Assembly: GCA_043804695.1 (NCBI GenBank)
Contig: JAZDIV010000133.1
Coordinates: 1-14,605, forward strand
Direction of reading: 5' to 3'
Source of the DNA: PVC group bacterium
GTDB lineage: Bacteria > Auribacterota > Erginobacteria > Erginobacterales > Erginobacteraceae
Length of the DNA stretch: 14,605 nt
The translations under genes were made by a program, and so were the position numbers. Of this stretch, positions 1,496-14,403 are shown piece after piece. The first letter of the stretch is position 1, and each line of letters opens with the position of its first letter. The notes below the pieces were generated by a model, which did not search any database, had not been told where the DNA came from, and saw nothing but the letters and a program-made list of their open reading frames with translations.

Positions 1496-1777
1496 TTACT
1501 TGTAGGCATCTTTTCGGTCGTCGATCGTGAGGATGTAAACTACTTGTTCTTCTTGATCGACGATATAGAAAAGCCTGAACTTGCCGATTCGGTATCTCCA
1601 GGTATCGGGGGAGTGCCCCTGAAGTTTCTTGATATTATTTCCCCAAAAGGGTTCTGTCTTGATTTGGGGGTAGACAAAGGAATCGAGTTTCTTCCTCAAG
1701 AAGGTGGCGTCGCGAGATGACAGTTTCTTGATCTTTTTCAAGAACTCGTCGGTCTCAAATATGCGGAAATCAGACAA
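1496..1777 (-). CDS. Type II toxin, RelE/ParE family
   Basis: 'IKKLQG..PDTWRYRIGKFRLFY.VD......YILTIDDRKDAYK' is a RelE-type signature. The likely start is TTG at 1777, overlapping the antitoxin stop; the ORF track extends to 1801. Confidence 0.88.
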   Translation of the reverse strand: MSDFRIFETDEFLKKIKKLSSRDATFLRKKLDSFVYPQIKTEPFWGNNIKKLQGHSPDTWRYRIGKFRLFYIVDQEEQVVYILTIDDRKDAYK

Positions 1778-2009
1778 AGCGACCCCGCTTGGCTTTCGCA
1801 TCGCGAAGACCGCTCTCGATACTGCGATTCAATTCTGCGTTATCTCTGATTTCTGCCATCTCGAATTCATCTACATACTCATGCTCTTCAATAAAGCGCA
1901 GGGCTGCGGTTTCGATAAAATTCGATAGCGGGCGGTTGTCATGTTCTGCCAAGCCTCGAAATCTCTTGTATACCTTGTCATCAAGTCTCAGTGTTACAGT
2001 TTTGGACAT
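1770..2009 (-). CDS. Ribbon-helix-helix (CopG-like) antitoxin
   Basis: 79 aa; 'MSKTVTLRLDDKVYKRFRGLAEHDNRPLSNFIETAA' is an RHH pattern and the C-terminal part is acidic. RBS AGGAGG; overlaps the toxin start. Confidence 0.88.
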   Translation of the reverse strand: MSKTVTLRLDDKVYKRFRGLAEHDNRPLSNFIETAALRFIEEHEYVDEFEMAEIRDNAELNRSIESGLRDAKAKRGRFV

Positions 2010-2096: not shown

Positions 2097-2215
2097 ATGG
2101 AACGCTGAGCTCAACAGCGCCCGGCAGTATAGATGTTGATGAGTAAGAATGGTCTCATGGGCATATCGAAAAGCCTCATTTAATGCGGTACTCAGGACGT
2201 CCGTTACAACGCCTT
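2097..2215 (-). other. Integron attC-like site with its R'' end replaced
   Basis: - strand: AAGGC-GTTGTAAC-GGACGTCCTGAGTA ... TACTGCCGGGCGCT-GTTGAGC-TCAGC-GTTCCAT. L''/L' boxes, 5-nt spacers, two extrahelical bases and the R' GTT are present; the expected AAC core at 2216-2218 is absent. Confidence 0.72.
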
Positions 2216-2410
2216 AATCCTGTTTAAGGACTCCTCCTTTATCATGCCTATTGGTATGATGAAGAGACTTCTCAACCCTCATCAACCCCCCGACAAATCG
2301 GGGGGATCGGGGAAAGGAGGACCTGTCCAGTACATTTTTTATGACGGAGGCCAATGCAATTCTGTACCCAGCGACTTAAATTTTACTGCGGGGTGGATCT
2401 GCATGCAAGA
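2216..2410 (+). mobile_element. IS110-family element remnant (left end: non-coding region plus transposase 5' fragment)
   Basis: About 138 nt of hairpin-rich leader, then GGAGG and a frame starting MQFCTQRLKFYCGVDLHAR, which I recognise as an IS110 DEDD transposase N-terminus (GxDLH, first catalytic Asp). The left boundary is inferred from where the attC breaks off. Confidence 0.72.
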
Positions 2411-2473
2411 CCGAATGGGAGTAGACACTTCTTGTTCGATCGAATAAGAAGTGTCTACTCCCATTCGGTTTAA
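2354..2473 (+). pseudogene. Truncated IS110 transposase (19 genuine codons, then read-through of a palindrome to TAA)
   Basis: ATG at 2354; IS110-like to 2410; the remaining 20 codons come from the 60-bp palindrome. Too short for the ORF track. Confidence 0.7.
2410..2469. repeat. 60-bp near-perfect spacerless palindrome (REP-like)
   Basis: ACCGAATGGGAGTAGACACTTCTTGTTCGA|TCGAATAAGAAGTGTCTACTCCCATTCGGT; 29 of 30 pairs, with one G/T at 2434/2445. Confidence 0.95.
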
Positions 2474-2483
2474 GCTATCTTAT

Positions 2484-2909
2484 CTATGAATCGGCGCACA
2501 GGGCATTCACGTGTCCCGCACGGCCATACTGCAGGATCGCCTGATCGGCGGTGAGGAGGGATGCCCCGGATTCACGGGCGGTGGCAATGAGCAGGCGATC
2601 AGCGGGGTCGCCGGGGAAGACGCCGGGCAGCCGGGTGCTGGAGATCGCGATGCGAGGCGTGAGTTCCGCCAGCCGGATGCCCGGCGCGGCCAGCGCCTCC
2701 CGGATCCAGCTTTGGCAATCCCCCGCCAGGACCAGGCGTCCCCCGGTCTCCAGCATCGCGACTTCCCAGACGGAGATGACCGAAACCAGCAGCCGGCCGT
2801 CGGGAACGGCTTGTTCGAGCAACCGGCGATTTCTCTTGCCCAGGCGACTGTCCCCCAGCATCAGCCACACCCACACGTGGGTATCCAGCAGGACTGAGCG
2901 CGGCATCAC
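2484..2909 (-). CDS. vapC: Type II toxin, VapC/PIN-domain ribonuclease
   Basis: 'VLLDTHVWVW', 'SVISVWEVAML', 'GDPADRLLIATA', 'LLTAD' give the PIN acidic tetrad. The start (GTG 2909 or ATG 2906) overlaps the antitoxin stop. Confidence 0.93.
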   Translation of the reverse strand: MMPRSVLLDTHVWVWLMLGDSRLGKRNRRLLEQAVPDGRLLVSVISVWEVAMLETGGRLVLAGDCQSWIREALAAPGIRLAELTPRIAISSTRLPGVFPGDPADRLLIATARESGASLLTADQAILQYGRAGHVNALCADS

Positions 2910-3130
2910 TCCGCCTCCCAGTTCTCGCCGGTTGGGGCCACGATATCACCAGTGATCGTCCCCTTCCCCTTAAGGTATCCGAACAGCGGTTGTTCCGGGG
3001 CCGGGGAGACCGGGACCAGCCGCGCCACCGCCTTGCCCCGCTTGGTGATCGTGATCGTTTCATGCGTCTCGGCCACGCGATCCATGAGCTTCAAGCACCG
3101 CGCCTTGAATTGACCTGCCGCGATCTCCAT
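2906..3130 (-). CDS. Type II antitoxin, Phd/YefM family
   Basis: 'MEIAAGQFKARCLKLMDRVAETHETITITKRGKAVARLVP' is a Phd signature. RBS GGGAGG supports the start at 3130 rather than 3226. Confidence 0.92.
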   Translation of the reverse strand: MEIAAGQFKARCLKLMDRVAETHETITITKRGKAVARLVPVSPAPEQPLFGYLKGKGTITGDIVAPTGENWEAE

Positions 3131-3173
3131 AACCGCCTCCCGCGAACACTCGACTTTATACAACTTTATCCTT

Positions 3174-3214
3174 ATGACTATAGTTATATGACCATATTCA
3201 CAGTTGATTGTCAA
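3174..3214 (-). promoter_or_regulatory. Promoter/operator of the Phd-VapC operon
   Basis: Perfect TTGACA (3214-3209, - strand); ATGACYATA direct repeats at 3174 and 3188, each within an imperfect palindrome. The -10 box is ambiguous. Confidence 0.55.
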
Positions 3215-3236
3215 GCCCTGTTTCATTGAGCTGAGG

Positions 3237-3334: not shown

Positions 3335-4942
3335 CTACGAGGAGGGGTGGAGGAAATGGAGGAAACGCCGGAGAATGTTTTCCCGCTTCAGGGATTCCGC
3401 CACCTCGCTTTTCTTGAGCGTCTTCAGGCGTTCCAGGGCGGCGGCGTTTTTTTCGGCCCGGTCAGCGACCAGGTCGGCCAGGCAATCCGGGATCTCCGGA
3501 CGAAGGCCAAGCAGGCGGGTAAAAGCGGCCGCGCTCACTTCCAACAGCTCCACCTCGCCCCGGGCGGTCACGGTGGCGGTCCGGGGGAGCCCGGTCAGAA
3601 GAGTCATCTCTCCCACCAGCGCCCCTCCCTCGACCTCGATCTCGTGGGCCGGGAGGTTGTCCTCCGCCGCGATCGTCACGCCCAACCTCCCCCGGGTGAC
3701 GATGAAGCAGCTCTCGCCCCCCTCCCCCTGCCGGAAGACAGGTTCCCCGTCCGTGTAGCGGACGAACCGGAGGTCGCCGGCCAGGGTCCGCGCGTCCTCG
3801 TCCGCCAGGAGCGGCCGCCCCTCCCCGTCGACCAGAACGGCGGTCATCAATTCTGAGTTTACCAGGGCCCGAGCCCGTCGCTCCAGCTCCCCGTCGTCGG
3901 GGGGAAGGCGGCGCTGTCGATAGACGACCGCCATGAAGTCGTTGAGGAGCTTGTCGCTCATCGGGAAGGGTATCTCGATCGAGCGACGCTTGAACTCGTA
4001 CCAGATCATCCGGCTGACATCGCCATCGAGGGGGACCCGGTCGTAATAACGCTTGCTCCAGTAGCGGAGAACGTAGTTGATCCCGAAATCCTTGTACTCA
4101 GTCACGTAGGCGGTCGGTTTCGGCTTGCGGAGCACCTCCGGCACGCTGAGGGCGGCGCTGACCAGGGCTTCGATCACCTCACCCGGAGCGTCGGAGTAGC
4201 TGGCACCGACATTGATTTCGTGCCGGCGGACCGGCGTCGGCGTGCTCAGGTTGCGGACCACGGTCGAGGAGACAACGCTGTTAGGAACCACGATCGTGTG
4301 GCCGCCCATCGTCCGCAGCCGGGTCTCCCGCCAGTTGGTCTGGATCACCCTCCCCTCACACTCCCCGACTGAAATCCAGTCGCCGGGGACCACCGAGCGG
4401 GTCAGGTGAAGGGACATCCCGGCGAGCAAGTTCCCGAGAACTCCCTGAAGCGCGAAGCCGATCACGGCGGTGAGGAGGGCGGTCGAGGCCAGCAGGGGCG
4501 AGATGTCGACCCCGAGACCGAAGCGGAGGATGGCGAAGAGGACGAGCAGGAGGCAGACGAACCGGATGATGTTCCGGAGCAGCGCCGGGATGGGGAAAGG
4601 CCGTTCCCGCCGGTCGTAGAACTGAAGAGCGAGCGACTCCAGGAAACTCAGGAAAAAAAGAGCGGCCCAGAAGACAAGCCAGTTCTGGAGGTGCGCCGGC
4701 ATCCCGGGGGGGAATTGAATCGCCAGCTCCCGGCGGGCCAGGAAGAAGAGAGGCGGGGAAAGGATCAGGACGGCCAGGGGGAAGGCCAGCCGGCTCGCCA
4801 GATAGCGCCCGGCCCCCTGCCAACCGGCAACGGCTTCCGCGCGTTTCGCCCAGCGCCGGCAGGGGATCGTCACCAGGAAAGAAAATAACAGGATAAAAAC
4901 AAAGAGACCGATTTCAGATATAACCGGAAGGTAACTGCTCAT
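3335..4942 (-). CDS. MscS-family channel with a C-terminal cyclic-nucleotide-binding domain (bCNG-like)
   Basis: MscS core 'IGFALQGVLGNLLAG...PGDWI...EGRVIQTNWRET...VVPNS'; cNMP domain 'VFRQGEGGESCFIVTRG...GEMTLLTGLPRTATV'. Confidence 0.92.
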   Translation of the reverse strand: MSSYLPVISEIGLFVFILLFSFLVTIPCRRWAKRAEAVAGWQGAGRYLASRLAFPLAVLILSPPLFFLARRELAIQFPPGMPAHLQNWLVFWAALFFLSFLESLALQFYDRRERPFPIPALLRNIIRFVCLLLVLFAILRFGLGVDISPLLASTALLTAVIGFALQGVLGNLLAGMSLHLTRSVVPGDWISVGECEGRVIQTNWRETRLRTMGGHTIVVPNSVVSSTVVRNLSTPTPVRRHEINVGASYSDAPGEVIEALVSAALSVPEVLRKPKPTAYVTEYKDFGINYVLRYWSKRYYDRVPLDGDVSRMIWYEFKRRSIEIPFPMSDKLLNDFMAVVYRQRRLPPDDGELERRARALVNSELMTAVLVDGEGRPLLADEDARTLAGDLRFVRYTDGEPVFRQGEGGESCFIVTRGRLGVTIAAEDNLPAHEIEVEGGALVGEMTLLTGLPRTATVTARGEVELLEVSAAAFTRLLGLRPEIPDCLADLVADRAEKNAAALERLKTLKKSEVAESLKRENILRRFLHFLHPSS

Positions 4943-5135: not shown

Positions 5136-5178
5136 AGGGAAGGGGTAGCTTACTACTTTCAAAGGGCTAAAATGTTAC

Positions 5179-5231
5179 CAAATTCCAAACCCCAAATCAT
5201 AAACAAATCACAAATCCCAAATCACAATTCC
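5179..5231. repeat. Imperfect heptamer (CAAATYM) tandem repeat
   Basis: CAAATTC CAAACCC CAAATCA .. CAAATCA CAAATCC CAAATCA CAATTCC; 5201-5228 matches 14411-14438 at 27 of 28 nt. Confidence 0.8.
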
Positions 5232-9753: not shown

Positions 9754-9853
9754 TTCCATCACCTCATGGTTCCACTGCATTTTAACTCACTGTTTTCTTC
9801 CGTCTGCTTACCTTCCGTCTTATTAGAAGAAAAAACCGCGAAAAAATTCAATA

Positions 9854-10089
9854 TAAATTAGCGCCTCCGGCGCTAATTTAGAAGAATTGGAGTGAATTGT
9901 ACCTTTTAAACTTGTAACAGACTGATGATTACCCAAGAATTAGTTTGAATGCAACTGCTCAATAAACAACGGTAAGCCCTTAGCGTAATAAAACAAAACA
10001 ACATGTTTTCCTGGTTGCTTTTTCGCCTGTTTTGGGAGTTCAATAATCGGAAAGATCCAATTATTGAACTCCCGAAACAGTAAATTAGC
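9854..10089. repeat. Double-hairpin intergenic element, copy A
   Basis: Hairpin TAAATTAGCGCC-TCC-GGCGCTAATTTA (9854-9880), a conserved core, a 21-bp-arm hairpin (10027-10080), then a lone TAAATTAGC. Homologous to 12174-12404. Confidence 0.88.
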
Positions 10090-12160: not shown

Positions 12161-12173
12161 AAAATTTTTGCTC

Positions 12174-12404
12174 TAAATTAGCGCCGGAGGCGCTAATTTA
12201 TTTTATTAAAGAGAATTTTTCTTTTAAAAAATAGAACAGACTGATAATGATCCAAGAATTAGTTTAAAAATAACTACTCAGTAAGCAACGGCAAGCCCAT
12301 ATTATTATAATTCTAAAAAGACATAATCTCATCCCGGGTGCTTTTTCATCTGTTTCGGGAGTTCAATAATAGGATTTTATCCGATTATTGAACTCCCGAA
12401 ACAG
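12174..12404. repeat. Double-hairpin intergenic element, copy B
   Basis: TAAATTAGCGCC-GGA-GGCGCTAATTTA (12174-12200); core 12235-12298 matches 9916-9979 at 53 of 64 nt without gaps; perfect 21-bp arms CTGTTTCGGGAGTTCAATAAT (12350-12404). Confidence 0.88.
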
Positions 12405-12409
12405 TAATA

Positions 12410-14134: not shown

Positions 14135-14202
14135 CCCGCTCCTGATCCCTTATTTCTTTATTAAGTTCGCTGAAAAACTCAACCTCTCAATAAACAAGCA
14201 CC

Positions 14203-14403
14203 TCAGCCAAAGGCTGATCTCCGCCAGAGGCGGATCTCCTCCCGAGGCGGATCTCCTCCCGAGGCGGATCTCCTCCCGAGGCGGATCTCCTCCCGAGGCG
14301 GATCTCCTCCCGAGGCGGATCTCCTCCCGAGGCGGATCAGCCTCTGGCTGAAGCCTCTGGCTGAAGCCTCTGGCTGAAGCCTCTGGCTGAAGCCTCGGGC
14401 TGA
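14203..14403. repeat. Compound VNTR derived from REP-like palindromes
   Basis: TCAGCCAAAGGCTGA; then 6 full copies plus 10 nt of GAGGCGGATCTCCTCCC (14227-14338); then 5 copies of AGCCTCTGGCTGA (14339-14403, last copy with 1 change). Confidence 0.95.

Follow-up and report, generated by a model that had tools for sequence, protein, structure and literature searches.

The locus analysed here raises the question of what kind of mobile element lies broken off beside a lone toxin–antitoxin cassette, and by which rule such an element comes to sit at so exact a position. The window, that is, the whole stretch of DNA under study (14,605 nucleotides from a PVC group bacterium of the Erginobacteraceae), had been read without database searches as holding an IS110-family remnant inserted at the R'' core of an attC site, antisense to the cassette. 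This sequence-only reading had further proposed that the remnant may belong to a separate attC-targeting lineage whose guide RNA would be encoded in an upstream non-coding region. The best explanation as a whole, to which we assign a probability of roughly 0.85, is that positions 2216-2409 of the window are the dead remains of the left end of an IS1111-type insertion sequence that targets attC. The kind of element, its target and its orientation have thus been upheld, and the novel lineage with an upstream guide has not.

The remnant and its neighbourhood

The remnant lies in a small low-GC island (~1420 to 2480), which includes a ParE-type toxin gene and a ribbon-helix-helix (RHH) gene, on the strand opposite to these two genes (Table 1). 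GC content is 0.39-0.49 in the island, and likewise in the ParE/RHH cassette, versus ~0.65 in the flanking genes. The toxin is recognized by Pfam model PF05016 at 31.9 bits, and for the antitoxin candidate, the RHH families all stayed under the Pfam cut-offs. On the other side of the remnant, the VapC gene (2484-2909, minus strand) ends 14 nt from a long palindrome, and the toxin–antitoxin pair to which it belongs has a host-like GC content of 0.55-0.72. The genes bordering the island are an MFS gene and an MscS/cNMP gene. In a genome of the same genus (G018), these two genes are located on separate contigs and neither has adjoining cassettes; the island is therefore specific to the window's genome.

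Table 1. Coordinates of the remnant, its neighbours in the window and the related right-end footprints on other contigs of the same genome.
Feature	Position	Strand	Description
Low-GC two-gene cassette	1496..2009	-	ParE-family toxin 1496-1801; ribbon-helix-helix antitoxin candidate 1770-2009
Remainder of a putative decayed attC	2097..2215	+ (= bottom strand)	R'' box missing here; read from sequence
IS left end	2216..2353	+	7-bp extension AATCCTG 2216-2222; left subterminal repeat TTTAAGGACTCC 2223-2234; leader
Transposase start	2354..2410	+	First 19 codons of a DEDD (IS110-superfamily) gene; homology stops here
Near-perfect 60-bp palindrome	2410..2469		30-nt arms, 1 mismatch, no spacer; at truncation point
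VapC (PIN) and Phd/YefM-type antitoxin pair	2484..3226	-	PF01850 52.3 bits; PF02604 34.7 bits
Right-end footprints	C24:22919-22993, C24:22012-22086, C30:16901-16953	-	
Right-end footprints	C110:15705-15830, C110:18471-18570, C90:21652-21738		

Read along the plus strand, the putative attC remainder starts with an R'-side heptamer (ATGGAAC, 2097-2103), followed by the spacer GCTGA, by GCTCAAC and by a variable part. On its L'' side, GTTACAAC (2203-2210) precedes a 5-nt spacer, GCCTT (2211-2215), and at 2215/2216 this spacer switches to AATCCTGTTTAAGGACTCC. The left end of the element, delimited by alignment with two further copies in the genome, the intact copies and 70 left ends of relatives, comprises a terminal extension, a subterminal repeat that is retained in decayed form and a leader of 138 nt with two small hairpins and a GGAGG run ahead of the start codon. 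The ATG at 2354 opens the peptide MQFCTQRLKFYCGVDLHAR, of which 16 of 19 residues are those of the N-terminus of an intact 347-aa transposase (P0001) from another genome. A Pfam scan of the 39-aa window frame returned no family, as expected for so short a piece, and the stump was likewise too short to be picked up by an HMM search of the genome.

At the truncation point, the palindrome begins exactly where transposase homology ends. As DNA, it is predicted to fold at -30.1 kcal/mol (z -11.4). Its sole match in the genome is itself; it is absent from eight related genomes and has no similarity to anything in the intact element. Its one-base imperfection speaks against an assembly artefact, and it may, as a guess, be the fold-back scar of the deletion that took the rest of the element. 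The palindrome was also considered as an attC site and rejected, with a score of 11.6 bits (E 0.02 in 2 kb, 0.39 in 35 kb) and no AAC/GTT boxes. Beyond it, no right end or R'' box could be named with confidence, GTTTAAG at 2468-2474 being a candidate only.

Elsewhere in the window, two adjoining tandem arrays (14185-14403) are built from a 17-nt unit, CTCCTCCCGAGGCGGAT (~7 copies), and then a 13-nt unit, AGCCTCTGGCTGA (~5 units); they are followed by AAATCACAAAT-type repeats, which are also present at 5169-5228. Moreover, an intergenic element of ~250 bp occurs twice, 2.3 kb apart (9841-10083 and 12161-12407, 73-97% alike), and carries palindromes such as TAAATTAGCGCCnnnGGCGCTAATTTA and CTGTTTCGGGAGTTCAATAAT, with related short palindromes at 4940, 13115 and 13303.

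Intact relatives of the remnant

A conserved hairpin motif of the leader led to two intact elements (L013 and L014) in one other genome. These elements, of 1707 bp each, are 99.6% alike and have different flanks. Both encode the 347-aa protein P0001, which is recognized at 180 bits (cut-off 140) by NF033542, the NCBIfam model for IS110-family RNA-guided transposases, and by PF01548 and PF02371 at 47.7 and 55.9 bits, respectively. With the match of the window's 19-codon peptide to P0001, the assignment of the remnant to an element of the IS110 superfamily, made in the sequence-only reading, is supported.

The ends of L014 read GATACTG-TTTAAGGCCTCC...GGAGGCCTTATAA-GGG, with an extension of 7 bp on the left and of 3 bp on the right outside a 12/13-bp subterminal inverted repeat. 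The right extension is GGG or GTG, its final G being shared with the GTT of the target. A metagenome scan with an alignment of 11 proteins yielded 80 loci which, together with four reference elements, make 84; both ends were located for 39 of them, the left end only for 31, the right end only for seven and neither for seven. The same type of subterminal inverted repeat pair is found in all 39 elements with both ends, a count to be read with the fact that the end-finding pattern required part of it. Elements with both ends measure 1563-1820 bp.

The two non-coding regions of these elements differ markedly in size. Leaders span 73-148 nt (median 86, n = 70), and a Shine-Dalgarno-like run lies within 20 nt of the start codon in 68 of the 70. 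The 3' non-coding region, by contrast, spans 439-692 nt (median 526, n = 39) and contains a conserved module. The leader of the window, at 138 nt, is thus an ordinary leader and not the long non-coding region of the family, so that the proposed new lineage, targeting attC with a guide encoded upstream, is not supported. In the 70 relatives, the leader ends in a ribosome-binding run (GGAGG) to which the sequence ..GGCCTCC of the left subterminal repeat is complementary. The leader could, as an idea only, mask the start site in transcripts reading in from outside.

A fixed insertion point in attC

The junctions of the relatives define the target with base precision. All 70 left junctions begin with GATA directly after the flank, and T occupies position -1 in 63 of the 67 relatives for which 20 nt of left flank were available. 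Within the metagenome set, the left-flank logo consists of G-17 T-16 C-15, C-12 T-11 G-10 C-9 A-8, T-2 and T-1. On the right, the flank starts with G+TT in 43 of 44 cases; it reads GTTRRRY in 22/44, and GTT followed by at least two of three purines in 39/44. The joined flanks of relatives, which read ...TT and then GTT..., accordingly rebuild attC sites, as had been predicted. Insertion is always on the bottom strand of attC, with the unpaired 5-nt spacer to the left of the element and the GTT of R'' to its right. The transposase gene is on this strand, as shown by the extrahelical bases, which are found in the 3' half of the site; therefore, the element lies antisense to the cassettes.

Recognition of attC sites by a home-made scanner (RYYYAAC...GTTRRRY, with paired arms) proved too strict, giving 23 candidates with none in the relevant contigs, and the scanner was replaced by a motif search combined with a covariance model. 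This model (R1) was built from five intact attC sites of the window's genome (G000). It finds eight sites in that genome and scores attC sites of relatives at 64.7-129 bits. Two occupied sites, those of L013 and of a deletion derivative (L020), reach 117.6 and 119.6 bits, respectively, with GATACTG exactly in place of GTTAGG; they belong to the attC family of this lineage. Empty sites read ...GAGCGACTG GTTATG or ...CTTGAGCGACTG GTTATG, and the occupied form reads ...CTTGAGCGACTT[GATACTG...TATAAGG]GTTATG. Empty sites carry the flanks once, so no target duplication is formed. The same target rule is followed by plasmid copies from Vibrio campbellii, Alteromonas and Pseudoalteromonas (51-54% protein identity).

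The window's own site has to be judged against this rule. On a target matrix built from the 67 foreign left flanks, which themselves have a median of 14.16 bits, the 20 nt that precede the break reach 12.46 bits, a value attained by only 204 of 5.94 million positions in the genome (top 3.4e-5). The window's flank thus fits the family target logo. The attC as a whole is no longer recognizable: the attC covariance model gives only 6.6 bits on 2161-2260 (E 0.5 to 9), versus 17.4 bits (E 0.011) and 13.7 bits (E 0.11) for the sites of the two other left-end copies in the genome, on contigs C65 and C154, respectively. Its halves pair poorly (weak fold, -13 kcal/mol), and the pairing of R'/R'' and L'/L'' boxes expected of an attC was not found in it. 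The window site is therefore probably a decayed attC, a label that derives from its flank logo, its position and the analogy with other copies. With this qualification, the sequence-only reading holds as to position and orientation: the remnant is found on the bottom strand of an attC, at its R'' end, and runs antisense to the cassettes.

A candidate guide module in the 3' region

The conserved module of the 3' region is located ~150-200 nt ahead of the right end. It consists, in order, of a hairpin, (A/T)TGAN-CCTCnATAnnnGTTTGG, a second hairpin starting with GTGCAG, and GAAA(T/C)CAAGTCAG, its conserved core being CCTCnATAnnnGTTTGG-hairpin-GAAAYCAAGTCAG. Within the module, ATAnnnGTT copies the right terminus of the element together with the first bases of the target. 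The variable triplet equals the element's own right-terminal triplet in 19 of 29 cases (shuffled mean 9.6; 19 reached in 0 of 10000 shuffles), a count from related sequences whose independence is overstated. Rare triplet variants, such as CGT, TGT and GGC, match between the module and the right end. In addition, two internally deleted derivatives, one in the window's genome (C65) and one elsewhere (L020), retain the module. By analogy with ISEc11, ISKpn4 and ISPst6, as set out in the available part of PMC11187229, the module is inferred to be the seekRNA region.

The derivative L020 is part of a cassette array (G017:C207, 628-3259) with three attC sites of the G000-type family. The middle attC of this array is occupied by the 700-bp deletion derivative, which has both ends as well as the 3' module.

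How the module might address the variable part of the target was examined in several ways. The motif CAAGTC in the 3' region was considered as a guide pairing with the spacer GACTT and was rejected, being kept in most relatives whatever their spacer. When the 14 nt of left flank were compared with the 3' module, the longest shared antisense words averaged 4.79, versus 4.87 for shuffled pairing; in the same sense, the mean was 5.03 versus 4.44, with 19 of 300 shuffles as high. No covariation was detected between the variable left flank and the module. Target recognition may rest on conserved landmarks only, namely the TGCA of L'', the TT and GTTRGG. RNAalifold on 28 module sequences returned just three pairs, and Rfam, searched at gathering thresholds, gave no matches in the window and L014.

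Copies and integron debris in the same genome

The genome of the window holds no intact copy of the element; found instead were three left stumps (the window and contigs C65 and C154) and six right-end footprints (Table 1). The copy on C65 (11106-11310) is 82% identical to the window (E 1e-51) and that on C154 (9498-9551) 85%, with similarity to the window starting at 2217 and 2210, respectively. The left end therefore lies where it had been predicted, in agreement with the junctions of the relatives. Both leader hairpins are common to the window and C65, and C154 has just the first.

The right-end footprints are 53-126 nt long and represent nested truncations, each ending ...GGCCTTATAAG(G/T) before GTTA. 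On C24, two of them are found immediately between neighbouring cassette ORFs, in the place expected for a complete attC. Just to the right of one footprint on C110, from ~18690 onward, a different IS110-family gene starts (MDLYTGIDLHSNN...), a gene that was not reported by the Pfam HMM search of the genome. As for the C65 copy, the full locus (C65:11104-11456; L002/L042) is internally deleted, with the left end and ~27 codons fused to a 76-nt core of the 3' module, 91% identical to the intact element; its right end is missing.

Remains of the integron itself are also found in this genome. An integron-integrase-like gene (L006, C32:273-1178) is recognized by the N- and C-terminal parts of TIGR02249 at 99.6 and 88.6 bits and lacks model positions 111-247, its middle being deleted. 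In tyrosine recombinases, these positions should hold catalytic residues. The gene is located at the very start of its contig and adjoins metK. The attC sites of the genome form one homogeneous family, with three sites at the end of C106 (740 and 1280 bp apart) and others in C53 and C30. In each, the R box (CCTAAC/GTTAGG) is paired and a 5-nt spacer is unpaired; an L box, in whose 3' half a T and a G are extrahelical, and a variable loop complete the site. Paired boxes, 5-nt spacers, extrahelical bases and unidirectional arrays were found on C106, C53 and C30 and in the relatives. The three C106 sites (62694-64844) are intact, nearly identical (128-131 nt) and point in the same direction at the end of the contig. 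The strand on which they lie would be compatible with a junction to the start of C32, but the two contig ends do not overlap. Overall, the integron of this genome looks like an invaded and decaying one. Such an outcome, with decayed footprints in cassette arrays, was reportedly described by Tetu and Holmes for IS1111-attC elements.

Spread of the clade and relation to known elements

In the phylum of the window, six of 79 genomes have a match at E<=1e-30, four of these at 72-100% identity. The clade is very large, with at least 8000 scored clusters at 90% identity, all at E<=1e-10; the best 120 of these at least 8000 clusters are at least 62% identical, and most lie on contigs of one-element size. 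It spans several phyla as well as marine Gammaproteobacteria.

Protein similarity places the transposase only distantly from the reference elements. P0001 aligns with the IS4321 transposase at 25% identity over 208 aa (33.9 bits) and reaches 24.3 bits with ISEc21, 26 bits with IS621 and 20 bits with ISCro4. IS4321 and ISEc21, the latter of the IS110 type, score 32.7 bits against each other. Since the distance between P0001 and IS4321 is about that between IS4321 and ISEc21, the family placement is made by architecture and not by protein similarity.

According to the part of PMC11187229 that was available, the IS1111 family is characterized by a DEDD transposase with PF01548 and PF02371 domains, by subterminal inverted repeats 11-13 bp long, by terminal extensions measuring 7 (or 6) bp on the left and 3 bp on the right, by a longer non-coding region downstream of tnp and by a seekRNA from the 3' region that movement requires, and IS110 proper is without subterminal repeats. 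The clade has DEDD domains (in the intact relative), subterminal repeats, terminal extensions, no target duplication and a downstream non-coding region. It thereby shares with IS1111 elements such as IS4321/IS5075, ISEc11 and ISPa11, which use a seekRNA, the 12-13-bp repeats, the 7/3-bp extensions, the lack of a target duplication and the longer non-coding region after the gene. Compared with the 1.3-kb IS4321, its 3' region is much longer. With IS110 proper (IS621, ISCro4 and ISEc21, which have an upstream bridge RNA), the clade shares the PF01548 and PF02371 recombinase and presumably an RNA-guided logic; it differs in its subterminal repeats and its long downstream non-coding region, features that set it apart from IS110 proper.

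Two other kinds of element target the same end of attC. Group IIC-attC introns share the attC end and the antisense strand (PMC3001079, as far as the accessible text goes) and differ in being retroelements with a ribozyme and a reverse transcriptase; none was found here, and Rfam finds none. The second kind is the IS1111-attC group. This group reportedly comprises ISPa21, ISPst6, ISKpn4, ISPa25 and ISUnCu1 and is said to have been treated by Tetu and Holmes in 2008 and by Post and Hall in 2009. Its members share with the clade the 5' (R''/L'') end of attC and the orientation antisense to the cassettes, in the accessible text of PMC3001079, and an IS1111-type layout with the guide region downstream, in the available part of PMC11187229.

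Alternative explanations

Among the alternatives, the strongest is that the clade is a plain member of the IS1111-attC group, a reading that we consider nearly, though not quite, an even bet. It is favoured by the shared attC end and orientation. Moreover, in the portion of a 2026 review that was accessible (PMC13604230), the ISPa25 target listed in a table, GACCTTGAGCGACTTGTTAG, is the target seen here, and the three listed 20-mers, which span -15 to +5, share C-15, C-12, T-11, A-8, T-2 and T-1 with the clade logo. The difficulty is the point of insertion. The same table, a secondary source, marks the insertion of ISKpn4, ISPst6 and ISPa25 as AA*CG or AG*CG, that is, 6 nt to the left of the boundary between the spacer (TT) and GTT at which the clade inserts. 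To hold, this explanation has to ascribe the 6-nt offset to an error of the source or to the way in which the ends were drawn, whereas in the present elements, CGACTT is unambiguously to the left of the element and empty sites hold CGACTT once. Size also differs: ISPst6 with 100 bp on each side measures 1713 bp, which leaves ~1.5 kb for ISPst6 itself, versus 1.56-1.82 kb (~1.65 kb) here. The apparent agreement of "1713 bp" with the size of the present element was rejected, as this span includes the flanks. Furthermore, a tblastn search of 72,556 plasmids with P0001 revealed nothing between 33.5% and 49% identity, and neither Klebsiella nor Escherichia was among the ten commonest hosts of the plasmid matches, even at E 5. 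A nucleotide search with the complete element led only to the same clade, and a tblastn search with IS4321 gave at least 5000 near-identical records.

The converse proposal is that the clade forms a second attC-targeting lineage of the IS1111 type, distinct from ISKpn4, ISPst6 and ISPa25 as compared by published descriptions, extremely abundant, integrating exactly at the spacer/R'' boundary, 6 nt from the published point, whatever the spacer sequence, and equipped with a 3' module that copies its own right terminus and GTTTGG. We put this forward tentatively, as possible and rather unlikely. The feature in the window is itself unremarkable debris from a known kind of element, and the offset raises a modest question at the level of the clade.

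Much less probable is that the stump and the palindrome were kept for a function in the host, either as a 3' stabiliser or terminator of VapBC or through expression of the leader and the 39-codon frame. The great stability of the palindrome, its place 14 nt after the VapC stop and the frame that remains open would suit such a role. Yet the hairpin is not followed by a U-run on the VapC strand, the sequence is specific to the present genome, the arrangement of stump plus palindrome is absent from eight genomes of the family, and the terminal repeat (AATCCTG..GGACTCC, versus GATACTG..GGCCTCC of relatives) has changed as neutral decay predicts.

Least probable of all is the separate attC-targeting lineage of IS110 proper with a bridge RNA in the leader kept in the window: the two small hairpins of that leader, both shared with C65, and the few IS1111-type elements with an upstream or double non-coding region in the available part of PMC11187229 lend it some colour, against which stand the little room left in short leaders with a Shine-Dalgarno-like run, the long 3' region of all 39 complete elements with its module tracking the right terminus, the subterminal repeats that IS110 proper is described as being without (same partial source), and the retention of the 3' module by the deleted derivatives.

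Proposed history of the locus and its significance

For the preferred reading, that of a dead IS1111-type stump, the following history can be proposed. The intact element, of ~1.7 kb and with a 347-aa DEDD transposase, would have inserted into the bottom strand of an attC site between the spacer and the GTT of R''. If ISEc11, ISKpn4 and ISPst6 are taken as models, a small seekRNA derived from the 3' region would direct the transposase, and movement would proceed via a circular intermediate with no target duplication (PMC11187229, in its available part). A later deletion would have removed all that follows codon 19, and with it the 3' region and the right end, leaving the 60-bp palindrome at the breakpoint. 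Because the 3' region and the right end are deleted, the stump can neither move nor make a guide. The attC that was struck would have been split from its R'' box and would have decayed since, a split that would leave the adjacent ParE-type cassette frozen within a small low-GC island flanked by core genes.

At the level of the family, the junctions yield, for a very common environmental element, a candidate guide module and a base-precise target rule (T at -1, then the GTT of R''). If the clade is indeed a second lineage, it would be a natural case in which an RNA-guided recombinase is directed to a conserved structural landmark of a folded recombination site rather than to one particular linear sequence. 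If the 6-nt offset is real, two RNA-guided lineages would have converged on the same end of attC, which would offer a natural comparison for how a seekRNA reads a structured target.

At the locus itself, the stump is a trace of how an integron cassette site was invaded and decayed, and it helps to explain how a lone toxin–antitoxin cassette came to be stranded between core genes. Elements of this kind interrupt attC sites and may render cassettes immobile.
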